This document shows, piece after piece, positions 32,509-49,149 of a stretch of DNA of 64,000 nucleotides. Each line of letters begins with the position of its first letter. The stretch's first letter is position 1. Source of the stretch: an uncultured Methanosarcinales archaeon (lineage in GTDB: Archaea > Nanobdellota > Nanobdellia > Woesearchaeales > UBA11576); assembly GCA_964406185.1 (NCBI GenBank), contig CAYOQS010000004.1, positions 72,616 to 136,615 on the forward strand, read 5' to 3'. The position numbers were made by a program, and so were the translations under genes. The notes beneath the pieces are model-generated. The model saw only the letters and a program-made list of their open reading frames with translations. It was not told the origin of the DNA and ran no database searches.

Positions 32509-32689
32509 ACTTCTTCACCTTTTTTTCCCCGAATGATAATGATACTATATGATGACCCAACTCATCGTCATTTATAAATGTTGCCTTAACAACACTGTTG
32601 GAAGTCGCGTTGCAGCCCTGCCTTGCAGGAGATTTCCAACAGCGGCAGAGCCAAAAACTATTTATACTATCTCAGATTCAGTCCTGCGC

Positions 32690-33589: not shown

Positions 33590-33606
33590 GTTGTCACTTA
33601 AGATCA

Positions 33607-34059
33607 TCACTTATCTTCTACTTTCTCCACAGCATAACCGTAATGTATCATCGCTGTGTCGCCGACAGCAGCATCCTTGTAGAGCGCTGACACCACTCTG
33701 ACGTCTCCATCTCCAAGCTCTGCTATGAAGTATCCTTTCTTCTGCCTGACTAGTTTGCCTGGCTTGACAACACACAGTCTCTTTATTGTCGGAGGAAGAT
33801 CAGCACTGAGATGCTCTTCATGCCTGTTCCAGAAATACTCACGTATAGTATCAACATTCCAGACATCTTCTGACACTTTCCTGATACCTTCAAACGCATG
33901 GTCGAATATCCTTTCAAGATACTTGCGGTCGACAGGTGTATCAGTCTCTACTGCTTTCTGCAAGTTCTCAAATTCTTCTTCTGTGATAGTCTTGCGCAAG
34001 TCCACTAACACTCTTGCGCAGGGAAATGAGTATCTTAAGAAATAGACTTCAGGCAACAT
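33607..34059 (-). CDS. Unknown N-terminal domain fused to a HypC/HupF-like OB-fold domain
   Basis: The C-terminal 55 aa, LCVVKPGKLVRQKKGYFIAELGDGDVRVVSALYKDAAVGDTAMIHYGYAVEKV, aligns to the HypC pattern C-x-x-x-PGK-V...VGD-x-x-x-H-x-G-x-A, but the Cys is internal. The start at ATG 34059 overlaps the hypC 3' end by 11 nt. Confidence 0.6.
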   Translation of the reverse strand: MLPEVYFLRYSFPCARVLVDLRKTITEEEFENLQKAVETDTPVDRKYLERIFDHAFEGIRKVSEDVWNVDTIREYFWNRHEEHLSADLPPTIKRLCVVKPGKLVRQKKGYFIAELGDGDVRVVSALYKDAAVGDTAMIHYGYAVEKVEDK

Positions 34060-34267
34060 TTTGTACAGCCTCTTCCCACGCTTCAAGGCTCTTCTTTGCC
34101 TCTTCCTCTGGTATCTTCGCGACGATGATCTTTGCAGACATGAAGACATAGTCTCCTACTTTGTAGTCTCCCTCGATTATACCTGCCTCTCGGGTATCAC
34201 AGGGATACTCAATAGTAGCTTTGTCACCTTCTATCTTCACTATCTTCCCGGGCATCGCAAGACACAT
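34049..34267 (-). CDS. hypC: Hydrogenase assembly chaperone HypC
   Basis: Canonical MCLAMPGKIV N-terminus and VGDYVFM. 72 aa. Confidence 0.85.
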   Translation of the reverse strand: MCLAMPGKIVKIEGDKATIEYPCDTREAGIIEGDYKVGDYVFMSAKIIVAKIPEEEAKKSLEAWEEAVQNVA

Positions 34268-34482
34268 ATTATCACCAACGAAGGCAGCACCACCGCTCTT
34301 TGCGTGTCCTCAAATCAAGACAGCTGGGTGGGCTGCACTTAATATTCAAACATCACATATTGCGCAAGCGCAGCAAGCATGGTCAGACCAAGATTCAGTT
34401 AGCAGCCTACTTGACCACTAGCAGCGTGGTGCTGCCGGGTCTGCCCGAAAAGGATATAAACTCTGCTCTCTATAAAAATCTT

Positions 34483-34863
34483 ATGCTATACATCCTTGCT
34501 TTCGGGAATCCGTATTTAAACGAGGATAACCTCGCTCTGCATATAGCTGATTCTATCATAGAGGACAGGATAAAAGGTGTCGAGGTGGTCAAGTGCATCT
34601 CTCCCGAGGAGGTACTGGACTACACCGACAGGGATTTCGTCATCATCGACGTGGTGAAGGATCTTGAAGAGGTGACTGTCATAGACAGCATCGACCGTCT
34701 CAAGGCAGAGGGGATGGTTTCCCTTCATGACTTCGACCTCGGCTTCTTCCTGAAGCTGATGAAGGAGACAGGTCAGATAGATAAGGTGAAGATTATAGGT
34801 ATCCCGATGAAAGGTGACATCAAAGGGATCAAGAAGAAAGTTCTAGAACTTCTGCGGGTGTAG
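34483..34863 (+). CDS. Hydrogenase maturation endopeptidase (HycI/HybD family)
   Basis: ILAFGNPYLNEDNLALHIAD (GNxxxxDD metal site) and SLHDFDLG (His ligand). The start was moved to the ATG at 34483, about 26 nt downstream of GATATAAA (34453-34460). Confidence 0.75.
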   Translation: MLYILAFGNPYLNEDNLALHIADSIIEDRIKGVEVVKCISPEEVLDYTDRDFVIIDVVKDLEEVTVIDSIDRLKAEGMVSLHDFDLGFFLKLMKETGQIDKVKIIGIPMKGDIKGIKKKVLELLRV

Positions 34864-34905
34864 CCGGCACTACTAAGCTGGCGTGGTGCAGGCTAGAACT
34901 AAGAA

Positions 34906-36186
34906 CTAGTCTGCTTCCATTTCAAGCTCCAGGAAGTGCGTAGAGCATGAGATGCAGGGATCGTACGCCCTTATGAGCTTCTCTATCTCTAGCTTTATGT
35001 CGTCAGGGCTCTTGTGCAGCTGTGAGGGGATGAACGCTTTTATGGCCTCTTCTATTCCCTGCAGGTTCTGGGTTGTGGGTGTCGTTATGTCTGCGTATGT
35101 GCAGTATCCTTTGTCGTCGAACCTGTAGTGGTGGAAGAGTATGCCTCTGGGAGCTTCGCATGCTGCTATTCCTTCACACACGCATGGGCTTACGGTGAAT
35201 TCGGCCGGGTTTTCAGGTCCTATGTCCAGATTGGACAGGATGATGATGCACCTGTTTATGCCTTCGAGTATCTCGAGTGCCTGGGCAGGTATGTTCATGA
35301 ACGGGTTGTCCTTGTTCTCGCATATCTTCCTTGCATACTGTTTTGACTCGTTTGTGAGCATCTCGAAGTTGTTGCACACTCTTGCCAGTGCGCCGACGAA
35401 GTAGCTCTTGCCTTCCTGCGTGGCGAACTCCGCTGTGCTGCCTTCCCTGAAGTGCTGCTTGAAATGTTCCTTGTAGTCTTTTGTCGGGAAGCAGGTGCCT
35501 CCTTCGCATTTGACTATCGTGTCTGAGTAGAAGTATGTTCCGCCGGTCAGGGCGAAGTGGGGTGTGGTCCTCTTGAATTCGGGGTATTTCAGGTCGAGAA
35601 AGAGTTTGACAGTCTCTACCGCGTCCTGCTTGCACTTCTTGAGCTCGTCGAGAAGTGAGTCTATCTTCTCTTTCTCGGGCGCTCTTGAGAAGCCCCCTAT
35701 GACGCAGGATATGGGGTGCACGTCCCTGCCGGATATGTTGAACACGATGTGGTTGCCGAGTCTCTTGAGCCGAAGCGCCCTGTCTATAAGTGTCTTGTTC
35801 TTCTTTGCGACGCCTATAGCGCTGTCCAGGCCTAGGTAGTCAGGCAGTGTGAGGAAGTAGAGGTGCAGTGCGTGGCTCTGGATTATGCCCCCTATGTTGA
35901 GCACTTCCCTGAGCTGTTTTGTCTGCTCTGTAAGCTTGACATCGAAGGCTTTCTCGACTGCCTTTATCGCTGTTATGGTGTGGACAACTGAACAGACCCC
36001 GCAGATCCTTGATGCTATGTGGCTCAGGTCGTTGAACTTCCTTTCCTTGAGTATGCCTTCAAAGTATCTTGCGCCTTCGAGCACCTTGAGCTCTGCTTTC
36101 TCGACCTTGCCACCGGATATCCTGAGGTGGAGCTTTGCGTGGCCCTCTATCTTGGCGATGTGTTCCATCTCAAGCTTCTTTGTCAT
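34906..36186 (-). CDS. [NiFe] hydrogenase large subunit, second paralogue
   Basis: RICGVCSVVH and DPCISCSTH followed by FLELEMEAD. Colinear with the protein at 23502-24788. Confidence 0.9.
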   Translation of the reverse strand: MTKKLEMEHIAKIEGHAKLHLRISGGKVEKAELKVLEGARYFEGILKERKFNDLSHIASRICGVCSVVHTITAIKAVEKAFDVKLTEQTKQLREVLNIGGIIQSHALHLYFLTLPDYLGLDSAIGVAKKNKTLIDRALRLKRLGNHIVFNISGRDVHPISCVIGGFSRAPEKEKIDSLLDELKKCKQDAVETVKLFLDLKYPEFKRTTPHFALTGGTYFYSDTIVKCEGGTCFPTKDYKEHFKQHFREGSTAEFATQEGKSYFVGALARVCNNFEMLTNESKQYARKICENKDNPFMNIPAQALEILEGINRCIIILSNLDIGPENPAEFTVSPCVCEGIAACEAPRGILFHHYRFDDKGYCTYADITTPTTQNLQGIEEAIKAFIPSQLHKSPDDIKLEIEKLIRAYDPCISCSTHFLELEMEAD

Positions 36187-36991
36187 GTTCGATCACTTTT
36201 CCTTCTATCGCGTCTGATTTTTGTCTTTCGTGTATCTTCTGCTCTCCGAACTTTCCCAGCTTGCTGATCACGTCTTTTTCATCTACGCCCCAGCTCCTGA
36301 ACAGCTTTGCTTCCGCTGCGAAGTTGGCGGTGTCCAACGGCCCCCTGCACATTATGCATGGTATGCCCTGCCTTATGCATATCGCGTTGCAGCCTCCGTG
36401 TGTCAATGCTCCGAGGCAGACGGTCTTCTCAGCCAGGTAGCAGTCCTTCCCCCTCCTTGGGCACTGGTTGCATACTGGCCCTTTGAACTCCTCTGTCTTT
36501 TTTCCGTCGAGGTAGTCGTTGATGAACTGCATGAACTCTGTCTTGAGTATCGGGCAGCCGTACATGTAGTAGTCGACCTTGATGAAGCTGTCGATGGGCT
36601 GCGCCTCTATGGAGTCTTCAAGCATCTGCTGGTTGTATACGTACTTGCCGAGCTTGTCGTTCTCTATGAAGTTTCGCATCGCAGGTATGCCTCCGTGGCA
36701 GGCGCACGCGCCTATCGCGACAAGCATCTTGCTCTTCTTGCGTATCTTCCTGAGGATCTCTTCCTCTTTCTTTGTGGTTATGGCTCCTTCGACGAATGCT
36801 ATGTCGAACTCAGCGTCCTTGTTCTTCTGCTTGATCAGGTGGAAGTATTGTATGTCTAGCTTTTCCATGAGCTGCGGCAGCTCATCAAGGAACAGCACCG
36901 TGAATTCGCAGCCTTCACAGCAGGTGAAAGAGAAGAATCCTGTTACAGGCCTCGCAGGCTTTTTTTGGGGGTTTGATGTTTTGTCTGTCAT
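36170..36991 (-). CDS. [NiFe] hydrogenase small subunit, second paralogue (no Lys-rich extensions)
   Basis: CCEGCEF, AIGACACHGGIP, GCP and GGCNAICIRQGIPCIMCRG. 273 aa. Its 3' end overlaps the large-subunit start by 17 nt. Confidence 0.85.
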   Translation of the reverse strand: MTDKTSNPQKKPARPVTGFFSFTCCEGCEFTVLFLDELPQLMEKLDIQYFHLIKQKNKDAEFDIAFVEGAITTKKEEEILRKIRKKSKMLVAIGACACHGGIPAMRNFIENDKLGKYVYNQQMLEDSIEAQPIDSFIKVDYYMYGCPILKTEFMQFINDYLDGKKTEEFKGPVCNQCPRRGKDCYLAEKTVCLGALTHGGCNAICIRQGIPCIMCRGPLDTANFAAEAKLFRSWGVDEKDVISKLGKFGEQKIHERQKSDAIEGKVIEHDKEA

Positions 36992-37277
36992 CGGAAATCT
37001 TTGGACATCTTTTTTTCAAAGTTTTTTTTAAATCATTCCGTTTTGTTGTTTATAACATTTTTCTTTTTTGCACCTTTTCTTTTTTCAGGGAAACATGAAA
37101 AAATAAGCTTCAGGCAGGGTCTTCTTTTTGGTTACCAATTTCCAAAAAAATGTTAGAACTACTAAAAGGTGAAAACGAACTTTTATTAAGGGCAAACTAC
37201 GCAAGTGTTGCCAGTATTAGAAATACGTCCAGTGACAAGAAAAGAGGCTTGCTGATTTAGTCAGTAATGAAAACAGA

Positions 37278-38513
37278 ATGAAGGTGTTGATGTTCGGTTG
37301 GGAATTCCCGCCCTTCAAAAGTGGTGGTCTAGGGACAGCTTGTTATGATCTAACCAAAGGGCTCTCTAACCAGGGGATTGATGTCACTTTTGTCATGCCT
37401 TCTGCGCCTGACGGGGCGAATGCTGAGTTCGTGAAGCTTGTCGGGGCGAATAATTACGCGAAAAAGGTCAAAGTCCGCAGAATAAACTCTATTCTTCAGC
37501 CTTACCAGTCATTCACCTCTTATGCTGATGCTATAAGATACGCCCGCCTCAATTCCAGGTTAAAGGGCAGCAGCAAGGATATCTACGGAACTGATCTTTA
37601 CGAGGAAGTCTATCGTTACGCAGCCGCTGCCAGCGAGATCGCTGAGGATGCCGAGTATGATGTCATACATGTCCATGACTGGATGACCTACCAGGCAGGT
37701 ATCAATGCGAAGAAGATTTCAGGTAAGCCCCTGGTCGCTCACATCCATGCGACCGAGTTTGACAGGACAGGCGGCAATCCTAACCAGATGATAAGCCATC
37801 TCGAGTTTTTAGGCCTCAACGCGGCAGATATAGTCATAGCCAACTCCAATTTCACCAAAAAGAATGTAATAAGACATTATAACATAGATCCTGACAAGAT
37901 TGAGGTGGTCCACTGGGGCATCGAGCCGGAGAATCCATACTATGGGATAGACCAGAGAAGCCCGTTTAGTGATGAGAAGGTCGTGCTGTTCCTGGGCAGG
38001 ATCACCATCCAGAAAGGCCCGGACTATTTTGTTGAGGCAGCTGCGCGGATCCTCAGGTACCTGCCTAACACCAAGTTCGTGGTTGCAGGTTCTGGTGACA
38101 TGTTCGAGCGGATGATCGACCGGGCAGACGACCTGGGTATCCTCAAGAATTTCATATTTACCGGTTTCCTGAAGGGTGCGGACGTACATAAGGCTTTCCA
38201 GATGGCTGACCTTTATGTCATGCCCTCTGTATCCGAACCTTTCGGACTTGTGGCGCTTGAATCGCTCAAGAACGGCACTCCTATCCTGATATCAAAGCAG
38301 TCAGGGGTGAGTGAGGTCGTGAATCACGCCCTGAAAGTTAATTTCTGGGATGTGGATGAGATAACGAACAAGATAGTGAACGTGCTGAAATATCCTGAGC
38401 TGCATGCTGAGCTCAAGGAGAACAGTTTTAGGGAGGTGCAGGGTTTCAACCTGGACGTGCCTGCGCAGAAGACAAGAGACATTTACGCCAAGGCGTTGGC
38501 GATCAGGAGGTAA
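37278..38513 (+). CDS. GT-B glycosyltransferase (GT4/GT5, archaeal glycogen/starch-synthase-like)
   Basis: The N-terminal MKVLMFGWEFPPFKSGGLGTA is a starch-synthase-like KxGGL motif. The C-terminal SEPFGLVALESL is an E-x7-E motif. Confidence 0.75.
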   Translation: MKVLMFGWEFPPFKSGGLGTACYDLTKGLSNQGIDVTFVMPSAPDGANAEFVKLVGANNYAKKVKVRRINSILQPYQSFTSYADAIRYARLNSRLKGSSKDIYGTDLYEEVYRYAAAASEIAEDAEYDVIHVHDWMTYQAGINAKKISGKPLVAHIHATEFDRTGGNPNQMISHLEFLGLNAADIVIANSNFTKKNVIRHYNIDPDKIEVVHWGIEPENPYYGIDQRSPFSDEKVVLFLGRITIQKGPDYFVEAAARILRYLPNTKFVVAGSGDMFERMIDRADDLGILKNFIFTGFLKGADVHKAFQMADLYVMPSVSEPFGLVALESLKNGTPILISKQSGVSEVVNHALKVNFWDVDEITNKIVNVLKYPELHAELKENSFREVQGFNLDVPAQKTRDIYAKALAIRR

Positions 38514-38522
38514 TGGGGGAAA

Positions 38523-39782
38523 ATGGTAAGCGTTTGTTTTTATTTCCAGGTGCATCAGCCGATGAGGATGAGGCGTTATCCTATCTTCGATATCGGTAAG
38601 AAGGAAGATTATTTCGATGATGAGAAGAATATAGAGGTGCTGCGCAAGGTCGCGCGCAAGTGCTATCTTCCCGCAAACGATGTCATGCTGGAGCTCCTTG
38701 AAAAGCATCCCGAGTTCAGGATATCATATTCTTTGTCAGGCGTATTCATAGAGCAGTGCGAGAGGTGGGCTCCTGAAGTCCTGGAAAGTTTCAGGAAGCT
38801 TGTGGCCACCGGACGTGTAGAGCTCCTTTCTGAGACATATCATCACTCTCTCGCGTATCTCTTCTCAAAGGAGGAGTTCAGGGAGCAGGTGCAGCTTCAC
38901 CAGCAGAAGATAAAGGAGGTATTTGGCGTGGAGCCGCGTGTTTTCAGGAACACTGAACTGATATACAACAACGAGATCGCTAATTTCGTCGAAGGTATGG
39001 GTTTCAAGGGCATACTCGCAGAGGGATGGGATCCGGTCCTTGGTTGGCGAAGCTCAAATTTCGTGTACAGGCCTAAGACCACCAAGAATATCAGGCTGCT
39101 GCTGAAGAACTACCGCCTGTCCGATGACATCGCGTTCCGTTTCTCCAACAAGGGATGGGAAGGCTGGCCTCTCACCGTGGAGAAGTTCTGCGATTGGGTG
39201 AACAGCTACAACGGAAGCGGGGAGTGCATCAACCTTTTCATGGACTACGAGACCTTCGGAGAGCACCAATGGGAGGATACAGGCATCTTTGAATTCATGC
39301 GCGCTCTTCCGGGTGAGCTGCTGAAACATCATGACAATGACTTCAAGACGCCGTCCGAGCTCATAGATACATTTGACGTAAAGGATGAGATAGACTGTCA
39401 TCACATGATATCCTGGGCTGATATCGAGCGCGACCTTTCCGCATGGCTAGGCAACAGGATACAGAGGGCTTCTGCGAGCAGGATATACTCTCTGGAGAAG
39501 GACATAAAGGCCGCCGGCGATGCGAGGCTGATAGATGACTGGAGGAGACTCCTGACCTCGGACCACCTCTACTACATGTGCACAAAATGGTTCAATGACG
39601 GCGACGTGCACAAGTACTTCAGCCCTTATGACTCTCCGTACGATTCTTTCATAAATTTCATGAACGTGACGAATGACCTTGTGTTGAGGATCAAGGCTGC
39701 GAATGGAGACAGAACATCAGCGGGTGAAGGCAACACCGATGAGGTGAATGGCGATGAAGGCGAAATGGGCAAGGCATTATAA
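38523..39782 (+). CDS. Glycoside hydrolase family 57 (alpha-amylase / glucan-processing enzyme)
   Basis: CFYFQVHQPMR N-terminus, and GRVELLSETYHHSL and MDYETFGEH, which are typical of GH57. Confidence 0.85.
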   Translation: MVSVCFYFQVHQPMRMRRYPIFDIGKKEDYFDDEKNIEVLRKVARKCYLPANDVMLELLEKHPEFRISYSLSGVFIEQCERWAPEVLESFRKLVATGRVELLSETYHHSLAYLFSKEEFREQVQLHQQKIKEVFGVEPRVFRNTELIYNNEIANFVEGMGFKGILAEGWDPVLGWRSSNFVYRPKTTKNIRLLLKNYRLSDDIAFRFSNKGWEGWPLTVEKFCDWVNSYNGSGECINLFMDYETFGEHQWEDTGIFEFMRALPGELLKHHDNDFKTPSELIDTFDVKDEIDCHHMISWADIERDLSAWLGNRIQRASASRIYSLEKDIKAAGDARLIDDWRRLLTSDHLYYMCTKWFNDGDVHKYFSPYDSPYDSFINFMNVTNDLVLRIKAANGDRTSAGEGNTDEVNGDEGEMGKAL

Positions 39783-39810
39783 GATACGGGCTTCGAATGC
39801 TACTCACATC

Positions 39811-40149
39811 ATGGAGAAAAAGAGGAGGCGGGATAAGATGGCGAGGTTGAAATCAAAATCAAAAGATGTCAAGAAGGAAGAAAGGAAGCAAGAGGGGATA
39901 ACTCCTGAGAAATATTTTGTTCTCAGCGACGGCAGGCCTATAAAGAGCGTGGAGGAGCTTGCCTTGATGCTGGACAGCATAAGCGATGAGGACTATTCAA
40001 GGCACGTCAATGATGAGAAGAACGATTTTGCGTGCTGGATAAAGGATGTTTTCGGCTTTTCCGAGCTTGCTGATTCGCTGATGTCTGTGAAGAGCAGGAA
40101 GGATAGCCAGATAGTCCTGCTCAAGCATGCTGTTGGGGGAAGAAGATGA
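39811..40149 (+). CDS. Small basic protein carrying a conserved ~70-aa domain of unknown function (paralogue 1)
   Basis: Basic N-terminus (MEKKRRRDKMARLKSKSKDVKKEERK), then YFVLSDGRPIKSVEELALMLDSISDEDYSRHVNDEKNDFACWIKDVFGFSELADSL. An alternative ATG at 39838 has GGAGG at 39824-39828. Confidence 0.6.
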   Translation: MEKKRRRDKMARLKSKSKDVKKEERKQEGITPEKYFVLSDGRPIKSVEELALMLDSISDEDYSRHVNDEKNDFACWIKDVFGFSELADSLMSVKSRKDSQIVLLKHAVGGRR

Positions 40150-40171
40150 TTTTTGTGAGAGGTGATTTTTG

Positions 40172-41203
40172 ATGGTCAGGGATTACGCGTTGGCTGACGC
40201 AGAGAAGATGATGGGTGATGTCCATCCGGACAGCGTGTTCAGCCTCCGGGACGGTTCTGAGATTAAGAGCCTGAAGGAGCTGTACTCACGGCTGCAGGGC
40301 ATGGACGATAGTGTGTTCAGCCATCATGTCAATGATGAGAGGAATGACTTCAGCAACTGGGTGCGTGACGTGCACAAGGATTACAGGCTGGCGAACAGCC
40401 TCGGGTCTTCCAGGAGCAGGGAGGATGCGCTGAAGGCTGTCGGTGACAGGCTTTATGAGCTGAAGAATGTAGTATATAAGCGGAAGAGCAGGGCTGTGAG
40501 CGAGACAGAGACTGCTGCCGAGAGGCTTGAGAAGATACTCACAGAAGCGGCCCAGGCAAAAGTCAAGGAACTGCGGAAGAAGAAGCAGGATTCCGGGTCG
40601 GACCCTTCTGTCGTTGACCTCGCGACAGGGCGCAGCGTCGTCATAAAGCAGGACAAGGGAGGTGACAGGAAGATAAGGAATGTCCCTTTCAGCCTAAAGG
40701 AACGGAGCGGCAAGGGCATCGAGATCGCCCGGCCAGGGAAAAGGTCAGGGATGAAGACGGACAAGAAGATAAGCATCATGCCGGAGAAGCGGAAGGCTGA
40801 AGCTATTGATGATAAGGTTTCAGGCCCGACTGCAGAGGATCTTCTGGATAATTCAGATGATGAGGTCAGGGGCTGCATAGCAGGAGAGGCTGATGAGCTG
40901 AAGAGGCTCGCCGAAAGTACCAGCACGCCAAGGCAGGTCGTGAAGGAGGTTTCTTCCATTTTCTCGGGCTCCAGCTTCAGGGTCTTCAGGGAGGACATGA
41001 AGAGGATGTTCCATTCGCCTCCTAAGGCGGGTGATATTGATGATGATGAGGACGACAGGGAAGAGGAAGAGAGTACAGGGGGATCAGTCAAAGAACCGAC
41101 TGCCGGGGATCATGTAAGATCCGGCGCGACAGTTATCGACGGGAAGACTGATGTCGACAAGAAAGAGATAGTGATATCTCATCTGAAGAGGGTGTTCAAA
41201 TGA
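40172..41203 (+). CDS. Protein with the same ~70-aa domain (paralogue 2) plus ~250 aa of charged low-complexity sequence
   Basis: VFSLRDGSEIKSLKELYSRLQGMDDSVFSHHVNDERNDFSNWVRDVHKDYRLANSL, then alternating basic and acidic tracts (RKKKQDSGSD, DIDDDEDDREEEE). The stop overlaps the minD-like start. Confidence 0.65.
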   Translation: MVRDYALADAEKMMGDVHPDSVFSLRDGSEIKSLKELYSRLQGMDDSVFSHHVNDERNDFSNWVRDVHKDYRLANSLGSSRSREDALKAVGDRLYELKNVVYKRKSRAVSETETAAERLEKILTEAAQAKVKELRKKKQDSGSDPSVVDLATGRSVVIKQDKGGDRKIRNVPFSLKERSGKGIEIARPGKRSGMKTDKKISIMPEKRKAEAIDDKVSGPTAEDLLDNSDDEVRGCIAGEADELKRLAESTSTPRQVVKEVSSIFSGSSFRVFREDMKRMFHSPPKAGDIDDDEDDREEEESTGGSVKEPTAGDHVRSGATVIDGKTDVDKKEIVISHLKRVFK

Positions 41204-41973
41204 GCGGCGGCAAAGTTATCGGTGTAATCTCCATAAAAGGAGGTGTAGGGAAGACTACGGTAGTATCTAACCTTGGGGCTGTGCTTGCGAAGAGCTTCGG
41301 CAAGAAGGTCCTTCTTGTAGACGGAAACATAAGCGCTCCGAATCTGGGTCTCCATCTTGGTGTGCTTGAGGCTGAGAAGACGCTGCATGACGTGCTTTAC
41401 GATCAGGTGTCCGCAAAGGATGTGATACTCAGGTCTGATTACGGGTTTGATGTTCTGCCCAGCGCATTGGCCCCGAAGAAGGGGCATAAGGGGAAGGTCA
41501 ATCCTTACAAGCTGCACAACAGGCTCGCACAGGTCAAGGGCGACTATGATTTTGTCATCGTGGACTCCTCGCCCAACCTTAATGAAGAGATGCTCTCGAC
41601 CATGATAGCAGCGGATGAGCTGCTTGTAGTCACGAGCCCTGACTATCCTACGCTGAGCTGCACCATGCACGCGATAAAGGTGGCGAAGGAGCGCAAGACA
41701 CCTATTTCGGGTCTTGTGCTGAACAAGGTGCGGGGCAAAGGATTCGAGCTTTCGGTACAGGATATCGAGAACGCTACAGGGGTGCCTGTGCTTTCGGTCA
41801 TAAGCGATGATGTGAAGGTTCTGCAGGCCCTGTCCGAGACAGCTCCTGCTTCGCTTAAGTCACCCAGGAAAGGGTTTGCTGTATCTTATGGTGAACTCGC
41901 GTCCAAGCTTACCGGTGAGGAGTTCAGGGATCCGAGACTTGCTTCAAAGCTGTTCGGAATGTTCAGGAAGTGA
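41200..41973 (+). CDS. MinD/ParA-family P-loop ATPase
   Basis: Deviant Walker A ISIKGGVGKTT, Walker B FVIVDSSP, and a C-terminal amphipathic RLASKLFGMFRK. 257 aa. Confidence 0.85.
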   Translation: MSGGKVIGVISIKGGVGKTTVVSNLGAVLAKSFGKKVLLVDGNISAPNLGLHLGVLEAEKTLHDVLYDQVSAKDVILRSDYGFDVLPSALAPKKGHKGKVNPYKLHNRLAQVKGDYDFVIVDSSPNLNEEMLSTMIAADELLVVTSPDYPTLSCTMHAIKVAKERKTPISGLVLNKVRGKGFELSVQDIENATGVPVLSVISDDVKVLQALSETAPASLKSPRKGFAVSYGELASKLTGEEFRDPRLASKLFGMFRK

Positions 41974-42034
41974 AAGCGAGAAATGAAGAGAAGCTGAAAT
42001 ATTTGTTTTTCCTTGTCTTGTTTGGGGGAATTTG

Positions 42035-43864
42035 ATGGTTGATGATAAAAGAGGTGAAGAGAAGGACATAGATTTCCTGTTAGAGGTATCCTGGGAGGTC
42101 TGCAACAAGGTCGGCGGTATCTACACAGTCATAAAGAGCAAGATCCCCCAGATGAAGAGGAAGTATGGTGACAACTACTGTCTTGTAGGTCCTTACTTCC
42201 ATAAGAAGGTCAAGGGTGAGTTCGAGGAGCGTCCGCTGCCTGCACAGTATAAGGCCGGCGCTGAGAGTCTGAAAGAGCTCGGAATCGTCCCGCATTATGG
42301 TGTGTGGCTCACTGACGGTAACCCTAAGACCCTACTTCTTGATTTCCAGCCTTTTTTTGAGAAGAAGGACAGCGTAAAGAGGGAACTTTGGGATCATTTC
42401 GGTATAGACTCCCTGCACAGCAGTTTCGAGTTCGAGGAGCCCATAGTATGGGCGTGGGCGGTAGGTGTCGCTCTTGAGAGTTTTGTGAACAAGGACCGGC
42501 CGGGCGAGAGGATAGCAGCCATATTCCATGAATGGCTTTCCGGAGCGGGCATCCTTTATCTCAAGTCGCGGGATTGCAGGATCGGCACGGTATTTGTGAC
42601 TCACGCGACGGTTCTGGGAAGGTGTCTCGCTAATGCAGGGGTGGACCTGTACCATGTCGAAGACGGCAGGAAATTGATGGAGAGGATGGACTTCGATCGC
42701 GAGTCCTATGAAAGGGGTGTCAGCTCAAAGTACCAGCTGGAAAAGGCGTGCGCGCATAATGCTGATGTCTTTGCGACAGTCTCTGAGATAACCGGTATCG
42801 AGGCGGAGCGTATCCTTGGGAAGAAGCCGGATATCCTGGTGCCGAACGGGCTGGACTTCGATGAGTTCCCCACTACTGATGAGAATTCGATAAGGCATAA
42901 GATATTCAGGGACAGGATTTTCCATTTCCTTCTTTATTATTTCTTTCCTTACTATCATATCGATCTTGACAACACGCTGATATATTTCATCGCGTGCAGG
43001 TATGAGCTCAGGGACAAGGGGATCGACATCTTTGTCAGGGCGTTGAGCAGGATGAACCGGGAGCTGAAAGAGAAAGGATCTGAAAGGAATATCGTCGCGT
43101 TCTTCTGGGTGCCGTCCAACGTGAGGGGGATAAAGCCTGAGATCGTCGAGAACAGGACTCTTTTCAAGGATGTGGAGGACAGCCTCAAGGACAATGCAGA
43201 GCATGTGATGTGGCATCTGCTGAGCACTTTCGTCGCCGATCGGCCGATAGTGAAGGAGACTATCTTCGACAAGGAGTTCCTTGCTGAGATCAAGAAGAAG
43301 GTGCTAAGGTTCAAGAGGGAGGAGACATCCCCTCCTGTATGCTCGCATGATCTTGCAGACCATGATGACGGCATCATACATCTGCTGAAGGAGAATGGCC
43401 TGAACAATGACCGCGAGGATGCGGTGAAGGTGATATTCTACCCGATATACCTGACAGGTGCTGACGGGCTGCTGGACATGACATACTATGAGGCGATGCA
43501 GGGTTCTCACTTGGGTGTCTTCCCGTCTTTTTACGAGCCTTGGGGTTACACTCCGCTGGAGGCTGGCGCTCTCGGTGTCGCATCTGTCACTTCTGACCTG
43601 TCTGGTTTCGGCAAGTACGTAAGCCACAAGAGAGGGGATGAGAAGGAAGGCATCTTCGTGCTGGAGAGGATGGGAAAGCAGGATGATGAGGTGGTGGAGA
43701 ATCTTTTCATGTTCATGATGGATTACGCTATGTTGCCTAAGAAGGACAGGATAAGGAATAAGTTCGCGGCGAACAAGCTTGCATCTCTTGCTGACTGGGA
43801 CCTGCTGGTAAGGAACTATGTGGATGCCGTGAGGCATGCCTGTGAAAGGGTCTCAAGATCGTGA
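42035..43864 (+). CDS. Glycogen synthase, GT3 (eukaryote-type) family, copy 2
   Basis: SWEVCNKVGGIYTVIKSK, FHEWLSGAG, VTHATVLGR, ATVSEITGIEAERILG, CRYELRDKG and FPSFYEPWGYTPLE. The ATG at 42035 is preferred over the TTG at 42032. Confidence 0.9.
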   Translation: MVDDKRGEEKDIDFLLEVSWEVCNKVGGIYTVIKSKIPQMKRKYGDNYCLVGPYFHKKVKGEFEERPLPAQYKAGAESLKELGIVPHYGVWLTDGNPKTLLLDFQPFFEKKDSVKRELWDHFGIDSLHSSFEFEEPIVWAWAVGVALESFVNKDRPGERIAAIFHEWLSGAGILYLKSRDCRIGTVFVTHATVLGRCLANAGVDLYHVEDGRKLMERMDFDRESYERGVSSKYQLEKACAHNADVFATVSEITGIEAERILGKKPDILVPNGLDFDEFPTTDENSIRHKIFRDRIFHFLLYYFFPYYHIDLDNTLIYFIACRYELRDKGIDIFVRALSRMNRELKEKGSERNIVAFFWVPSNVRGIKPEIVENRTLFKDVEDSLKDNAEHVMWHLLSTFVADRPIVKETIFDKEFLAEIKKKVLRFKREETSPPVCSHDLADHDDGIIHLLKENGLNNDREDAVKVIFYPIYLTGADGLLDMTYYEAMQGSHLGVFPSFYEPWGYTPLEAGALGVASVTSDLSGFGKYVSHKRGDEKEGIFVLERMGKQDDEVVENLFMFMMDYAMLPKKDRIRNKFAANKLASLADWDLLVRNYVDAVRHACERVSRS

Positions 43865-43886
43865 TTTTTTTTCGGGGTTTGATAAT

Positions 43887-44861
43887 ATGGAATTGAGGAA
43901 AGGGTATGTTGTGGACCGTTGGGTCATCATCGCAGAAGGCAGGGGCAAGAGACCGCACGAGTTCAAGACTGAGGATGACATCTATGCAGATGATAAGGGT
44001 TCCGAGCATTGCTTCTTCTGCCCGGGCAATGAGGAGATGACCCCGCAGGAGATAGGGCGCGTTGATGACGGCAAAGGAGGGTGGAAGCTCAGGTGGTTCG
44101 CTAACAAGTTCGCCGCTGTGGACAGGAAGGGCGACCCGACGATCAAGACAGCTGATGATTTCTTCACATACTCTGACGCTTACGGCAGCCATGAGGTTAT
44201 TGTCGAGACGCCTGACCATTCGAAGCAGCTTATAGACTTTGATGAAGATGAGATCGTGGATATCCTTAAGGTATATGCCCGGCGGATCGATGTGCTGAGT
44301 AATCAGCCGGACATCAAGTATGTCTCTGTGTTCAAGAACGAGGGGAAGAAGGCAGGCACTTCGATAGTGCATTCTCACAGCCAGGTCATCTCCCTGAATA
44401 TTGTCCCGCCGAGGGTGCAGCACAAGATCGACGCTGTGAAGAAGTTTCCTTCCTGCCCTTACTGTGATGTAATCGACATAGAGAAGAGGGGGTTGAGACG
44501 TGTCCATGAGGATGACACCACCCTGACCTTCACACCTTATGCCTCGCGCTTCAATTTTGAGGTATGGATATTTCCGAAGAGCCATTACAGGACGCTGATG
44601 GACTTCTCTGATGATGAGCTGTTCGACCTCGCCGCCGCGATCAAGAGGGTGATGAGGAAACTGAAGGAGCTGAACGCGAATTTCAATATGGTGCTGTACT
44701 ACGCCCCGAAGGGTGATGACCTGCACTTCCATATAGAGATACTCCCGCGTATTGCGACGCAGGCCGGCTTTGAGCTGGAGACAGGAGTTATAATAAATAC
44801 TGTCAGCCCTGAGGACGCTGCGAAGTTCTACAGGGGAGAGCATGAGAGGAAAGGTGAGTGA
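43887..44861 (+). CDS. galT: GalT-family (HIT superfamily branch III) hexose-1-phosphate nucleotidyltransferase / NDP-glucose phosphorylase-like
   Basis: CFFCPGNE Zn motif, NKFAA, and the active-site VHSHSQV (HxHxQ). The start was moved to the ATG at 43887. Confidence 0.8.
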   Translation: MELRKGYVVDRWVIIAEGRGKRPHEFKTEDDIYADDKGSEHCFFCPGNEEMTPQEIGRVDDGKGGWKLRWFANKFAAVDRKGDPTIKTADDFFTYSDAYGSHEVIVETPDHSKQLIDFDEDEIVDILKVYARRIDVLSNQPDIKYVSVFKNEGKKAGTSIVHSHSQVISLNIVPPRVQHKIDAVKKFPSCPYCDVIDIEKRGLRRVHEDDTTLTFTPYASRFNFEVWIFPKSHYRTLMDFSDDELFDLAAAIKRVMRKLKELNANFNMVLYYAPKGDDLHFHIEILPRIATQAGFELETGVIINTVSPEDAAKFYRGEHERKGE

Positions 44862-44865
44862 TAAT

Positions 44866-46221
44866 ATGGCGGTTGACACAGGTGTTTTCAAGGCATATGA
44901 CATCAGAGGTATCTATCCTGACGAGGTTGATGAGGAACTGGCCTATCTTGTGGGCAAGGCTTTCGCCACCGACCTTAACTGCAGGAAGGTTGTGGTCGGC
45001 AGGGATATGCGCAAGTCTTCTGACTCCCTTTTCGGGGCGCTCTGCAGGGGACTTAATGAGATGGGAGCTGATGTGCTTGACATCGGCATGTGCACAACGC
45101 CCATGCTTAACTTCTCGGTCGCGCACTATGGGCTGGACGGAGGTATCATGATATCTGCTTCGCATAATCCTGGGAAGTACAACGCTTTCAAGCTTATCGC
45201 TCCGCCGGCCCTGCAGATGGGCAAGGGATCGGGTATGGAGGAGATCAGGGAGCTTGTGCTGAGGGATGATTTCGACCCTCCGGAAAAAAAGGGCTCTGTC
45301 GTTCAGAAGGATGTTCTGGATGACTATCTCGGTCACATCAAAGGGTTCTGCGGGAATATCAGGGATGTGAAGATAGTGGCTGACTACGGTAACGGCATGG
45401 GTGCGGTATCTGCAGGGCCTCTTCTGGAGTCTCTTCCTGTCGAAGCGGTGCATCTATATCCTGAGCCTGATGGAAGTTTCCCGAACCATGAGGCGAACCC
45501 TCATGACATTTCCAACTTCAGTGACCTGCAGGGCAAGGTTAGGGAGGAGAACGCGGATATCGGTTTATTTTTCGACGGTGATGCTGACCGTTCCGCTGTG
45601 GTGGATGAGAAAGGCGATATAGTCTTCCCTGACATCGTGCTGGGTATAATAGCTGAGCACAGGCTGGATAAGTATGATGACAAGCGTGTCTATTACGACC
45701 TCCGCTTCACAAAGGCGATAAAGGAAGTTGTCGAGGAGAAGGGAGGGACGCCGGTGATGATGAAGGTAGGCAATCCTTTCTATAAGGAGAAGCTGATCAG
45801 GGAGGGCGGCGCTTTCGGCGGTGAGCTTTCCGGTCATCTTATGTTCAGCGAGAACCATAATATCGATGACGGGCTTTTCGCTGCGGTGATGCTGCTTGAT
45901 GTTGTCTGTAGCACAGGGAAGAAGGTGTCGGAGCTTGCATCTCCGATGAGGAAGTATTTCCAGACAGAGGAGATAAACACGAAGGTCAGGGATGCGGCTG
46001 CTGTGCTTGAGGAGGCGAAGCAGGCTTTCAGCGACGGTGAGAGCCTTGATATAGATGGTGTCTATGTCAGGTATCCTGACTGGTGGTTCAGCCTGCGGAA
46101 GTCAAATACAGAGCCGCTTGTCCGGCTGCGTATAGAAGCGGATTCTGAAGAGCTTCTGGCAGAAAAAAGGAAAACGCTTACGAGCATCATAGATAAGCAT
46201 GCTATAGAAGAAGATGTATGA
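44866..46221 (+). CDS. Phosphoglucomutase/phosphomannomutase
   Basis: FKAYDIRG, the phosphoserine loop ISASHNPGKYNAFK, the Mg loop FDGDADR, and GELSGH. Confidence 0.9.
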   Translation: MAVDTGVFKAYDIRGIYPDEVDEELAYLVGKAFATDLNCRKVVVGRDMRKSSDSLFGALCRGLNEMGADVLDIGMCTTPMLNFSVAHYGLDGGIMISASHNPGKYNAFKLIAPPALQMGKGSGMEEIRELVLRDDFDPPEKKGSVVQKDVLDDYLGHIKGFCGNIRDVKIVADYGNGMGAVSAGPLLESLPVEAVHLYPEPDGSFPNHEANPHDISNFSDLQGKVREENADIGLFFDGDADRSAVVDEKGDIVFPDIVLGIIAEHRLDKYDDKRVYYDLRFTKAIKEVVEEKGGTPVMMKVGNPFYKEKLIREGGAFGGELSGHLMFSENHNIDDGLFAAVMLLDVVCSTGKKVSELASPMRKYFQTEEINTKVRDAAAVLEEAKQAFSDGESLDIDGVYVRYPDWWFSLRKSNTEPLVRLRIEADSEELLAEKRKTLTSIIDKHAIEEDV

Positions 46222-48059
46222 TGAAGATAAGGCATAAGATACCGAAGCTGACTGTCGAGTCTGAGGACGGCGGCAATGACGATCCTGTCTGCATATTGTC
46301 AAACAGGAAAGGGGGTTTCTTATTCCTCTCTGAACCGGTCATCTCGAAGTACAATGGTTTCTTCGTGAATTATAATATGGAGATTTTTAAGGTCCTGCAG
46401 GACATCAGGCTTGCTGACAGCAGTTTCCATACGGTGGAAAATGGTCTCACTTACTACCGGAGGGTGCATGAAGGTAACTCTGAGAAGATTTTCTGCCCTG
46501 AAGGCATCAATGGGTTCTCTTATTCCCTGGCGAAGAAGGCGCGTGTGGTGCTGGATTTTGACTGCAAGCGAATAGATGATATGCGCTCTTTCGGGATGAA
46601 TTATGATGTTGATGTGGGCAAGGGGCGGATAATGGTTGACTTCACAAAGAGGACCGCGGGTACTGAGGATGATACTGATGGCGTAGAGGAGTTCGGCCTC
46701 TGTATAGCGATGAAAGCAGGAAGTTTTTTGCCTGAGAGGGATTATGAGTACATCAACAGCTGGAATGAGTCTTATTACAGCTATGACTACAGCAGAAAGG
46801 ACTTCCCTGCTCACCGTTATGTGTATCAGCCGTTCATCTTAACTGCTAAGAGCCTTCTGGTCGCTGTTGGGCGTGACAGGAAGGAGGCGCTTGCCGAGCT
46901 GGAAAAGATGAAGAAGGTTAAGGAGGACAGTTTCTCTTTCAGTAAGGTTGATGCGAAGAAGGACCGTGAGGTCGCTGCGGCTTTTGTGTGTGCGCAGAAC
47001 TCTCTTGAGAGGATGAAAGTGCATCATGATGGTGTTGACAGGCTTTACGCCGGCCTGCCCTGGTTCTTCCAGTTCTGGTCGAGGGATGAGAATATCAGCC
47101 TGGGTGGGCTCATTGCACAGGGCCAGTTCAAGGAGGTCAAGGGAATCCTTTTCAGCTATCTGGAGAATATCAGTGAGGACGGCAGGCTGCCTAATCATAT
47201 ACCCTCCCCCCATCTCGGCTCTTCTGATGGTGTTGGTTGGTTCTGGAAGAGAGTAGGTGACCTTATCCATGCTCTTGAAAGTGCAGGGAATAAGGAAAAG
47301 ATGCTCCCTAAAAAAGACATGGATCTCATCCGCAAGAAGCTGGAGATATCTGTAGAGCGCATCGAGAAGAACTACCGGAAAGAGGGCCTTATCTTCAGCG
47401 ACAGGAAGGAGACATGGATAGATACTGATTACAACGGTCAGGACGGACGCGAGGGATTTCCTGTCGAGATACAGGCCTTGCACCTTAACATGCTGAAGCT
47501 GCTTCACGAGCTGGGCGGTGAGAAGAAGTATGCTTCACGTGAGAAGCGGATGCGTAAGAAGGTTCTGGAGAGGTTCTGGAACGGCAGTATGCTCGCGGAC
47601 AGGGCTGACGATTACATGATAAGGCCGAACATATTCATCGCGTATTATGTATATCCTGACCTTCTTTCGCGTCGGGAGTGGCAGACAGCTTTCGAAAATG
47701 TTCTGGGCAGGCTTTGGCTTGACTGGGGAGGGCTGTCGACCATAGATAAGCAGCATTTCCTTTTCGTCAATGAGTATACCGGTAAGGACTGCCAGAGCTA
47801 TCATCGTGGGGATTCCTGGTTCTGGTTGAACAGCCTGGCCGCTCTGTGCATGTTCAGGAACAACCCTATAGAGTTCGAGGACAGGATAAGGAAGGTGTTG
47901 TCCGCGAGCGCGAAGGAGATCTTGTGGATGGGCGCTGTCGGGCACAATGCTGAGGTGTCTTCCGCTTCGCATCTCTCTTCTTACGGCTGTTTCGCGCAGG
48001 CATGGTCAGATGCACTTTTCATCGAACTGGTGTCAGAGGTGTATGGCGTTGGAAAGTGA
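46218..48059 (+). CDS. Glycogen debranching enzyme (amylo-alpha-1,6-glucosidase, GDE_C type)
   Basis: LYAGLPWFFQFWSRDENISLGGL, ETWIDT, YHRGDSWFWLN and QAWS are typical of archaeal/bacterial GDE-C proteins. The start overlaps the PGM stop (ATGA). Confidence 0.85.
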   Translation: MMKIRHKIPKLTVESEDGGNDDPVCILSNRKGGFLFLSEPVISKYNGFFVNYNMEIFKVLQDIRLADSSFHTVENGLTYYRRVHEGNSEKIFCPEGINGFSYSLAKKARVVLDFDCKRIDDMRSFGMNYDVDVGKGRIMVDFTKRTAGTEDDTDGVEEFGLCIAMKAGSFLPERDYEYINSWNESYYSYDYSRKDFPAHRYVYQPFILTAKSLLVAVGRDRKEALAELEKMKKVKEDSFSFSKVDAKKDREVAAAFVCAQNSLERMKVHHDGVDRLYAGLPWFFQFWSRDENISLGGLIAQGQFKEVKGILFSYLENISEDGRLPNHIPSPHLGSSDGVGWFWKRVGDLIHALESAGNKEKMLPKKDMDLIRKKLEISVERIEKNYRKEGLIFSDRKETWIDTDYNGQDGREGFPVEIQALHLNMLKLLHELGGEKKYASREKRMRKKVLERFWNGSMLADRADDYMIRPNIFIAYYVYPDLLSRREWQTAFENVLGRLWLDWGGLSTIDKQHFLFVNEYTGKDCQSYHRGDSWFWLNSLAALCMFRNNPIEFEDRIRKVLSASAKEILWMGAVGHNAEVSSASHLSSYGCFAQAWSDALFIELVSEVYGVGK

Positions 48060-49149
48060 ATTCATCAGTTTCTGTGAGTTCAGCAGGGATGATTTCGGTT
48101 CTTTTGTGCTCGGCGGTGATGTCAGCGCGACGAACACTACTCTTGCTGTCATCGGCGTTGATGGCAGGGAAGTCAAGCCGCTGTTCGCGCTGAGGTTCAG
48201 GAGCCAGGAACTGTCAGGCATCACAGAGGTGATCAACAGGACGCTTGAAGTGGCACACAAAAAGCATGGCATCACTTTATCGGAGGCTTGCATCTCTGCT
48301 GCAGGGCCTGTTGATGCTGAGAGGACTCATTGCGACCTAACGAATGTAGGGTGGGACATCGATGTGAAAGATGTCCTTGCAGGGACGATGCTTGATTCTC
48401 TTGCGCTTGTCAATGATTTTGAGGCGATAGGTTTCGGCCTGCCTTTCCTGGATCCTGGCAGCAATGATGATCTTGTCATTCTTTCACATCCAGGGAACAG
48501 GATGCCCGGAACCGTGCCTAAGGCTCCGAAAGGTATTGTCGGTGCGGGCACCGGGCTTGGCAAGGCGATCCTTTTCTATCATGATGACAAGGATGCTTAC
48601 GCACCCAGCCCTTCGGAGGGAGGTCATGCTGATGTCCCTGTCGTTGATTCCTATGAATATGAGCTGGTCCAGTTCGTGAAGGATCGTCGCGGGGGTGAGG
48701 CGCCTTGCGATTATGAGGATCTGCTCAGCGGCAGGGGGGTTGTGAACATATATGATTTTGTGCGTGAGATGGATGAGTTCGCTGAGAACGATGTGTCTGC
48801 TGAGATTGGATCTGCTGATGACAAGGCTGCCGCGATCTCAAGGCATGCCAAGGACGACCCTGTTTGCGGTAAGGCTTTCAGGCTTTTTGTGAGGTTCTAC
48901 GCGCGTGCTTTGCGGAACATGGCGTTGGATATCATGGCAAGGGGTGGCATGTATATCGCGGGCGGCATCGCTGCCAAGAATCTTGATATTTTCAGGGATG
49001 GTGGATTCATGAAGGAATTTGAGGTCAATCATTCTATGCATGATGTGCTGAAAGACATCCCTGTGTTCGTGATCACAAATTACGATGTCAGCCTTTTCGG
49101 CTGCGGCAATGTTGCGGCTAATTTCCCGGAGTTAGCGATAAAGAAATGA
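48043..49149 (+). CDS. glk: Glucokinase (bacterial Glk family)
   Basis: LGGDVSATNTTLAV, VNDFEAIGFG, GAGTGLGKA, GGHADVP and AGGIA. The start was moved to the ATG at 48043, which overlaps the debranching-enzyme 3' end. Confidence 0.85.
   Translation: MALESEFISFCEFSRDDFGSFVLGGDVSATNTTLAVIGVDGREVKPLFALRFRSQELSGITEVINRTLEVAHKKHGITLSEACISAAGPVDAERTHCDLTNVGWDIDVKDVLAGTMLDSLALVNDFEAIGFGLPFLDPGSNDDLVILSHPGNRMPGTVPKAPKGIVGAGTGLGKAILFYHDDKDAYAPSPSEGGHADVPVVDSYEYELVQFVKDRRGGEAPCDYEDLLSGRGVVNIYDFVREMDEFAENDVSAEIGSADDKAAAISRHAKDDPVCGKAFRLFVRFYARALRNMALDIMARGGMYIAGGIAAKNLDIFRDGGFMKEFEVNHSMHDVLKDIPVFVITNYDVSLFGCGNVAANFPELAIKK

Follow-up and report, generated by a model that had tools for sequence, protein, structure and literature searches.

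The 64,000-nucleotide stretch analysed here (the window; positions 72,616 to 136,615 of contig CAYOQS010000004.1, assembly GCA_964406185.1) comes from an archaeon placed by GTDB among the Woesearchaeales and carries a gene cluster for alpha-glucan (glycogen) metabolism, in which two small paralogous proteins and a MinD-family ATPase are encoded among the enzymes. Twelve co-directional genes, tightly spaced or overlapping, occupy positions 37278–50797 of the + strand in the order: a glycosyltransferase of families 4/5 (GT4/5) resembling glycogen synthase, a glycoside hydrolase of family 57 (GH57), paralogue 1, paralogue 2, the ATPase, a GT3 glycogen synthase, a GalT-like protein, phosphoglucomutase (PGM), a GDE_C debranching enzyme (GDE), glucokinase, a 115-residue open reading frame (ORF), and a GH15 enzyme. 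The initial annotation of this DNA, made from the sequence alone, had described three co-directional genes between those for GH57 and GT3 within a twelve-gene same-strand run, and our gene calls bear this out. Judged by comparison with related genomes, the gene module is real, conserved, and unusual, representing an ATPase-plus-adaptor theme in a glycogen operon, from which we infer a mechanism based on membrane tethering.

BLASTP aligned the two paralogues without gaps at 32 identical residues out of 70 (46%, E=2e-18), far beyond chance and close to the 31 of 71 previously counted by hand. The shared domain had been thought not to fit any characterised family. By profile comparison and predicted structure, this domain of ~80 residues is one OrfY/DUF5752 repeat. 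A domain profile covering both paralogue families identified OrfY of Thermoproteus tenax (4CSO) in the PDB with E=4e-4, and both OrfY repeats were aligned at the NDF..W motif. In the AlphaFold2 (AF2) model of paralogue 1, the domain has a predicted local distance difference test score (pLDDT) above 90, and the top Foldseek match was 4cso_B (probability 0.95, 82 columns, r.m.s.d. 3.4 Å). An AF2 model of the concatenated N-terminal domains of paralogues 1 and 2, for which natural tandem proteins served as alignment rows, also had 4CSO as its top Foldseek match, with a probability of 0.99. The scores against the Pfam family DUF5752 (PF19027) were 20.2 bits for paralogue 1 and 15.6–19.3 bits for paralogue 2, both under the gathering cutoff of 23, and precomputed PF19027 annotation is present on many close homologues. 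Because the two paralogues match different halves of the 208-position DUF5752 model, each covering one of two repeats, DUF5752 looks like a tandem duplication of the domain. The family is very large in DPANN archaea: exhaustive searching at E<=1e-3 gave 4819 cluster representatives, among them tandem two-domain proteins. One protein of 280 residues (P0174) combines a basic N-terminus, two OrfY-like domains, a linker, and a C-terminal transmembrane (TM) helix in one chain, and this single-chain version supports joint action of two separate paralogues. Other members (P0159, P0170, P0154, P0187, P0192, and L068:6272-10315) have the domain fused to KaiC-like ATPases or to HerA/FtsK-like ATPases, the latter in proteins of 1300–1970 residues with CarboxypepD_reg repeats; these fusions suggest that the domain is more broadly associated with P-loop ATPases across DPANN archaea. 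Our literature search found no paper on DUF5752, nor on OrfY of T. tenax. In T. tenax, orfY may lie beside the trehalose synthase gene treT and be co-transcribed with it; the paper on trehalose in this organism makes no mention of orfY.

Outside the shared domain, the two paralogues carry different extensions. Paralogue 1 most likely starts at 39754 (MKAKWARHYK...) because a Shine-Dalgarno-like (SD-like) GAGGTGA lies 6 nt upstream, an identical 131-residue protein exists in the database (P0001), and the N-termini of orthologues agree; the gene therefore overlaps the 3' end of the GH57 gene by 29 nt. The initial annotation was right about a basic N-terminus, for which we found 41% lysine and arginine in residues 1–46, while its start at 39811 is less likely. 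All six GTDB loci with the ATPase encode the N-terminal WxRHYK motif, which none of the examined first paralogues from ATPase-less loci has. Since paralogue 1 of ATPase-less species also has a basic N-terminus, basicity as such is not tied to the ATPase. The tail of paralogue 2 is charged, as had been noted, with 20% lysine and arginine and 20% aspartate and glutamate over 239 residues (previously estimated at ~250), but it is not purely of low complexity. Three motifs, ETAAERLEKIL, ELIxFAE..SSxFS..DMKKxF, and SHLKRVYK, are conserved in the alignment of 21 homologues, all of which are from Woesearchaeota or Nanoarchaeota where the source is named. A hidden Markov model (HMM) of the tail matches only proteins encoded directly 5' of an ATPase gene: besides the window, it detected the tail at 7/9 non-redundant ATPase-linked loci with two paralogues and at 0/74 ATPase-less loci, and it did not match the divergent L015 or L098. 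The C-terminal motif is a candidate ATPase-binding peptide, and a degenerate C-terminal ..ΦxxΦKKVΦ peptide is kept in the divergent L015 and L098 proteins.

The ATPase belongs, by best family match, to archaeal MinD. Its closest solved relatives are MinD of Pyrococcus furiosus (1G3Q, E=2e-33), which is the best PDB match, and that of P. horikoshii (E about 1e-33). It scores 174 bits against NCBIfam minD_arch (TIGR01969; cutoff 201.75) and 107.5 bits against minD_bact (TIGR01968; cutoff 212.9), reaching neither cutoff. Orthologues are 63–75% identical, far more conserved than paralogue 2. The deviant Walker A motif SIKGGVGKTT and the amphipathic C-terminus RLASKLFGMFRK, both pointed out earlier, are present. 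The hydrophobic moment of the terminal helix is 0.72, a value reached by 4% of shuffles, and it ranges from 0.72 to 0.94 across the window ATPase and three orthologues. In switch I, Asn43 aligns with the second Asp of VDGD in P. furiosus MinD and of IDFD in E. coli MinD, and the P. furiosus alignment independently gives the Asp-to-Asn change. We considered Asn43 as a special trait of the glycogen-linked ATPase and rejected it, since relatives at unrelated loci share the Asn: VD[GA]N occurs in every member of the DPANN subfamily examined, including L091, L093, L095, and L096 from unrelated loci. Such a subfamily-wide Asn may mean slow or partner-dependent hydrolysis. Relatives with 50–63% identity at unrelated loci lie beside a helix-turn-helix (HTH) protein, MoxR/VWA genes, or a P-type ATPase and are ~20 residues longer, whereas the glycogen-linked ATPases end right after the amphipathic helix. 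A metagenome scan added further glycogen-linked copies (L089, L090, L094, and L098, of which L094 is a fragment beginning inside the ATPase gene). In a simple neighbour-joining tree without support values, as was also the GH57 tree below, the glycogen-linked ATPases are monophyletic; they are not simply a housekeeping MinD. We found no second MinD-like copy in the 64-kb window, and no MinC or MinE beside the ATPase in the window or at related loci, where its neighbours are an OrfY-like gene upstream and GT3 downstream. The ATPase has no C-terminal tyrosine cluster typical of bacterial tyrosine kinases (BY-kinases), and its matches to them (E=1e-7 to 1e-12) are far under the cutoffs.

Table 1. 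Features of the glycogen operon and of the paralogue–ATPase module (window coordinates).
Feature	Position	Strand	Basis or remark
GT4/GT5 glycogen-synthase-like glycosyltransferase	37278-38513	+	Pfam Glyco_transf_5, Glycos_transf_1, Glyco_transf_4; opens the conserved GT-GH57-OrfY-like block
GH57 glycoside hydrolase, putative alpha-glucan enzyme	38523-39782	+	Pfam Glyco_hydro_57, E=2.3e-83
Paralogue 1, 131 aa	39754-40149	+	Basic N-terminal extension and one OrfY-like domain
N-terminal motif of paralogue 1, M-x-W-[AV]-[RK]-[HQ]-Y-K (WxRHYK)	39754-39783	+	Begins every orthologue
OrfY-like domain of paralogue 1, residues 47-128	39892-40137	+	Domain HMM match
Paralogue 2, 343 aa	40172-41203	+	N-terminal OrfY-like domain and 239-aa charged tail; ATG start 40172; SD-like GAGAGGTGA upstream
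OrfY-like domain of paralogue 2, residues 14-104	40211-40483	+	Domain HMM, 143.9 bits
Tail motif 1, ETETAAERLEKILTEAAQAK	40502-40561	+	Conserved in tail alignment, 21 homologues
Tail motif 2, ELxxxAE..(V)SSIFSxxxFxxFxxDMKxxF	40895-41011	+	Conserved in tail alignment
Tail motif 3, C-terminal, KKEIVISHLKRVFK	41159-41200	+	Orthologue form (I/M)IxHLK(K/R)V(Y/F)
MinD-family ATPase, 257 aa	41200-41973	+	Pfam AAA_31, CbiA, ParA; ATGA overlap with paralogue 2
Deviant Walker A, SIKGGVGKTT, residues 11-20	41230-41259	+	Signature Lys13, P-loop Lys18; invariant in orthologues
Switch-I VDGN, Asn43 at MinD catalytic Asp site (E. coli D40)	41317-41328	+	Alignments to MinD
C-terminal amphipathic helix, RLASKLFGMFRK, residues 246-257	41935-41970	+	Candidate membrane-targeting sequence
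GT3 (eukaryote-type) glycogen synthase	42035-43864	+	Pfam Glycogen_syn, E=9e-151
Remainder of operon: GalT-like nucleotidyltransferase, PGM, GDE_C debranching enzyme, glucokinase, 115-aa ORF, GH15	43836-50797	+	Pfam, NCBIfam

The module is conserved beyond the window. Three homologues of paralogue 2 (32–40% identical) lie in the order GT4/5-GH57-paralogue 1-paralogue 2-ATPase-GT3-GalT-PGM-GDE-kinase(-GH15), one of them with a different upstream flank. The earlier reported arrangement of three genes next to glucan genes thus recurs: GT4/5-GH57-paralogue 1-paralogue 2-ATPase was found at 10 further non-redundant loci from metagenome-assembled genomes (MAGs) or metagenomes, with GT3 and the rest following wherever the contig extends. 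The part of the operon beyond GT3 has an identical order at L001, L003, L004, L009, and L089. Paralogue 2 is only 32–42% identical in the closer homologues of these conserved loci. The stop codon of paralogue 2 overlaps the ATPase start as ATGA at 41200–41203, as initially described, and the overlap is kept in every locus with both genes. It measures 4 nt at 8 of the 10 non-redundant loci that were read and is longer in L015 (11 nt) and L098 (14 nt). At L098 (362-2626), a divergent eleventh locus, GH57 is followed by a single OrfY-like protein of 186 residues, with a K-rich tail ending in ..DMINKIKKVHENE, and then by the ATPase. Where the source is named, both paralogues have their homologues in Woesearchaeota, Nanoarchaeota, or unclassified archaeal MAGs, all of DPANN type. 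Many GTDB records with a Woesearchaeota-type operon (L012, L020, L021, and others) are titled 'uncultured Methanosarcinales archaeon', and L014 'Candidatus Saccharibacteria bacterium'; judging by gene content and protein similarity, these titles are probably placeholders or wrong labels.

A wider scan of GTDB with one genome per species gave more than 542 loci, of which the best 80 were analysed by tblastn and HMMs. At 59/80 species loci, no more than 300 nt separate GH57 from an OrfY-like gene, and at 7 more the two are within 4 kb of each other; GH57 is absent despite at least 3 kb of upstream sequence at 10/80 loci, and 4/80 loci were not assessable. OrfY-like genes were therefore beside or near GT4/5-GH57 glucan genes in 66/76 assessable species, with the GT4/5 gene 5' of the OrfY-like genes at most related loci. 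GT3 is present at 45/80 loci, and the ATPase at only 6/80 (L009-L013 and L015). The small OrfY-like genes nearly always occur as 2–4 tandem single-domain genes per locus, the first with a basic N-terminal extension and a later one with a C-terminal tail. On this distribution, the OrfY-like pair is apparently an old and widespread accessory of GT4/5-GH57 in Woesearchaeota, usually without the ATPase (74/80 species). The comparative pattern suggests that the pair functionally belongs with the GT4/5-GH57 glucan genes and that one member is commonly fixed to the membrane.

The clearest difference between loci with and without the ATPase concerns this membrane fixation. A simple hydropathy test found a C-terminal TM helix at 36/74 ATPase-less loci, with hydrophobic C-termini such as ...FIYGFVLGLIFGMMMLGVIVNLRA, and at 0/6 ATPase loci. 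Seven of the ATPase-less loci without a TM helix encode a third paralogue (L035:5641-6264, L051:5737-6345, L059:10614-11198, L061:4423-5169, L066:948-1607, L075:1682-2341, and L076:10724-11425) with an extremely K/R-rich tail and the conserved end motif ...W(L)(K/N)WL(K/N/S)(I/L)(V/N/S)P(E/K)(L/M), and the remaining ones have short pairs without tails. The polybasic tail could be another membrane-binding or nucleic-acid-binding device. In the neighbour-joining tree of GH57, clades with a TM anchor surround the main ATPase clade. L098 falls outside the latter, which hints at either a second acquisition of the ATPase or a tree error. Because ATPase-less relatives are tail-anchored, targeting of such proteins in the manner of Get3 was considered; it was rejected, as the TM helix is gone from the ATPase lineage and the match to ArsA/Get3 (E=3.7e-4) is confined to the P-loop.

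The surroundings of the module were surveyed as well. The product of the GT4/5 gene matches NCBIfam glgA_Coryne and glgA, both under their cutoffs. The glucokinase ORF (47947-49149, + strand) overlaps the GDE gene by 113 nt as listed, and its true start is probably further downstream because the Pfam match begins at residue 55. The 115-residue ORF (49444-49791, + strand) between glucokinase and GH15 overlaps the GH15 start and gave no match in the NCBIfam search; at L004, an unannotated gene of 210 residues occupies its position. Upstream of the operon, positions 24785-36991 of the - strand encode NiFe-hydrogenase subunits, HypC-like genes, pyruvate phosphate dikinase, an EamA transporter, and HMG-CoA reductase; the upstream flanks of L001, L003, and L004 were read alongside, and that of L003 has an Mrp/Mbh-type membrane complex instead. 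Downstream, an ORF of 986 residues (53124-56084, + strand) has no Pfam match at E<=1e-5. The archaeal identity of the DNA is supported by protein matches to the FttA KH domain and HMG-CoA reductase and by the Woesearchaeota labels of homologues. No tRNA and no Rfam family was found in the window. No centromere-like repeats were found in 37000-42200, where the only repeat of note reflects, at the DNA level, the HVNDE(K/R)NDF motif shared by the paralogues.

We favour, at a probability of roughly 40%, a reading in which the two paralogues and the ATPase act on the alpha-glucan machinery as a membrane tether or assembly factor that is switched by ATP. In the ancestral state of Woesearchaeota and Nanoarchaeia, at least two single-domain OrfY-like proteins would have been encoded directly after GT4/5 and GH57, probably acting jointly like the two repeats within one OrfY chain, and one of them would commonly have carried a disordered linker and a C-terminal TM tail anchor. 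In the lineage of the window, this anchor appears to have given way to a soluble module at the C-terminus of paralogue 2 together with a translationally coupled MinD-family ATPase. The ATP-bound ATPase dimer would dock on the membrane through its terminal amphipathic helix and hold paralogue 2 through the tail module, with the WxRHYK N-terminus of paralogue 1 as a possible further contact, and the OrfY-like domains would link this assembly either to the glucan or to its enzymes. Given the Asn in place of the catalytic Asp, we propose that the ATPase probably works as a slow switch gated by its partner, much as BcsQ does in BcsRQ, and does not oscillate. We infer every physical interaction in this model, as well as the membrane binding and the ligand of the OrfY-like domain, from sequence comparison. 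In a bolder form, the MinD-family ATPase would reversibly dock the glycogen machinery or granule through OrfY-like adaptors in place of a TM anchor, as the first dedicated device for the spatial organisation of glycogen in a prokaryote, with the corollary that OrfY/DUF5752 would serve the P-loop ATPases of DPANN archaea as a general adaptor; we regard this form as doubtful.

Several observations weigh against the tether. The 38/74 ATPase-less loci without a TM helix mean that membrane anchoring is not universal, and seven of these 38 have instead the paralogue whose polybasic tail ends in ...WLKWLKIVPEL. As the ATPase loci amount to essentially a single clade, the co-occurrence counts represent one or two events and are not independent. 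The concatenated AF2 model has a mean pLDDT of 91.6 but a predicted template modelling score (pTM) of 0.58, and it superposes on 4CSO with a template modelling score of only ~0.25 and an r.m.s.d. of 16 Å, so that an OrfY-like pairing of the two paralogues is not confirmed. Moreover, nucleic acid could be a ligand of the basic N-terminus of paralogue 1, the PDB header of 4CSO reads 'ORFY PROTEIN, TRANSCRIPTION FACTOR', and the OrfY superfamily has been called a possible enzyme (PMC5906684).

The initial annotation had suggested an ATPase–adaptor pair that positions or partitions glycogen granules. The ATPase–adaptor relationship fits the clade-specific motifs, and the comparative data point to membrane tethering instead of gradient-driven positioning. 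If the ATPase formed dynamic patterns on the membrane or nucleoid, the OrfY-like adaptors would stimulate it so as to space the granules or divide them among daughter cells, resembling McdAB. A ParA/MinD-family ATPase beside small, partly disordered, charged partners is indeed the usual layout of such systems, the translational coupling is conserved, and the helix resembling a membrane-targeting sequence is shared with Haloferax volcanii MinD4, an archaeal MinD that positions cellular machinery. The basic N-terminus of paralogue 1 also resembles the basic ATPase-stimulating peptides that occur in ParB, MinE, and McdB-type partners; however, it is found in ATPase-less species too. A fast-cycling patterning ATPase is disfavoured because of the Asn at the catalytic Asp position throughout the subfamily, and a substitution there in BcsQ goes with no detectable hydrolysis (PMC7840130). 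Related species have a static TM anchor as the alternative, which suggests attachment, not patterning. Furthermore, our literature search found no published ParA/MinD system for glycogen, and the location of glycogen in E. coli has been explained by phase separation (PMC12706056). We thus think positioning unlikely and favour it less than the tether. If the ATPase were a housekeeping DPANN MinD-like protein doing its usual job, whose gene landed in the operon by chance, the 50–63% identical relatives at unrelated loci and the VDxN motif common to them would be expected. Yet the glycogen-linked ATPases form one clade with a distinct, shortened C-terminus, the start of the ATPase gene overlaps the stop of paralogue 2 at every locus, the two paralogues have acquired motifs that are seen only where the ATPase is present, and the loss of the TM anchor coincides with the ATPase, which makes such an accident very improbable.

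The OrfY-like domain itself might instead be a membrane enzyme or a ligand-binding module acting on glucan or a lipid-linked precursor, with a membrane-associated alpha-glucan instead of storage glycogen as the product and the ATPase as an assembly or regulatory subunit of the BcsQ or Wzc type. The polar residues H, N, D-F, W, and D show little or no variation in the two paralogues and throughout the family, tail anchoring brings the domain to the membrane, the association with GT4/5-GH57 is closer than that with GT3, and the ATPase has weaker matches to BcsQ and tyrosine-kinase-type P-loop families. Nevertheless, no family member has a known catalytic activity or ligand, the operon encodes the full storage-glycogen set of GT3, PGM, GDE, glucokinase, and GH15, we saw no exporter or lipid-carrier enzyme among its genes, and the ATPase lacks a C-terminal tyrosine cluster; we also consider this explanation unlikely. 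The deposition of 4CSO as a transcription factor could be taken to mean that the OrfY-like proteins regulate transcription of the glucan operon, binding DNA through basic tails, with a ParA-like ATPase as partner and the membrane anchor sequestering the regulator. Homologues of paralogue 1 have strongly basic N-termini that in places resemble histone tails, and these, like the polybasic tail on one paralogue at seven loci, would suit this role. Pfam and NCBIfam profile searches, however, detected no HTH or other DNA-binding family, no centromere-like repeat array was found near the locus, the ATPase is of the MinD type with an amphipathic C-terminus and not of the nucleoid-binding ParA type, and the fusions of the domain to KaiC-like and HerA-like ATPases and in very large proteins fit a protein-interaction module better. 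A regulatory function therefore seems to us distinctly unlikely.

The tether, if it exists, could be of broader interest. Our literature search found no dedicated system that localises glycogen or glycogen enzymes, and a conserved, operon-encoded tether would open this question in archaea. OrfY/DUF5752 gains a first genomic setting, GT4/5-GH57, and a testable property, namely membrane attachment through one of three C-terminal devices. The apparent replacement of a TM anchor by a peripheral ATPase with an amphipathic helix might illustrate how a fixed attachment could become regulated. DPANN archaea have small genomes and a little-characterised cell biology, and here a conserved multi-gene accessory module is placed in their main carbon-storage operon.

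The nearest relatives of the individual parts differ from the module in instructive ways. OrfY (4CSO) and DUF5752 share with the window proteins the fold and the motif F.L.DG...L..L......F..HV....NDF..W..D...LA, but OrfY holds two repeats in one chain of 216 residues, whereas each window gene encodes one repeat plus an extension, namely the basic N-terminus of paralogue 1 and the long tail of paralogue 2. The tail-anchored OrfY-like paralogues of other Woesearchaeota have the same operon position (GT4/5-GH57-paralogue 1-paralogue 2-GT3), N-terminal domain, and disordered linker; they end in a TM helix and lack the ATPase, whereas paralogue 2 of the window ends in the SHLKRVYK module with the ATPase gene next to it. 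ParA-type cargo-positioning systems such as McdAB for carboxysomes and ParC/PpfA for chemoreceptor arrays use the nucleoid as a matrix and adaptor-stimulated ATP hydrolysis. The module resembles them in combining an ATPase with a small, charged, partly disordered adaptor beside the genes for a presumed cargo, which by operon context would be the glucan enzymes or glycogen, but the window ATPase has a predicted membrane-binding helix and lacks the catalytic Asp. MinD provides the best sequence matches and shares the deviant Walker A motif with its signature lysine and the C-terminal amphipathic helix, and a functional C-terminal membrane-targeting sequence is known for an archaeal MinD, H. volcanii MinD4 (bioRxiv 10.1101/2020.04.03.021790). 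In contrast to MinD, the window ATPase is under the minD_arch cutoff, has Asn for the catalytic Asp, is paired with an OrfY-like partner, and is set in a glycogen operon.

The closest parallel in design is BcsRQ of enterobacterial cellulose secretion. BcsQ has Cys or Ser at the catalytic Asp position, stays ATP-bound, and binds the small BcsR, encoded upstream, at the interface used by MinE and Get1; BcsRQ is a stable ATP-bound dimer serving assembly rather than patterning (PMC7840130). Likewise, the window has a MinD/SIMIBI ATPase in a polysaccharide operon, a gene for a small partner directly upstream, and a substituted catalytic Asp (Asn43). This likeness is one of design and does not make BcsR and paralogue 2 homologous: BcsR is a 7-kDa protein unrelated to OrfY. 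BcsQ is without the cis P-loop lysine, whereas the window ATPase keeps K18, and the match of the window ATPase to Pfam CBP_BcsQ (E=5e-9) is much weaker than those to MinD-type families. The Bcs system secretes cellulose from a membrane synthase, whereas the enzymes encoded in the window look cytoplasmic. Despite these differences, the best reading by analogy is that the two paralogues and their ATPase would be closer to BcsRQ than to an oscillating positioning system.

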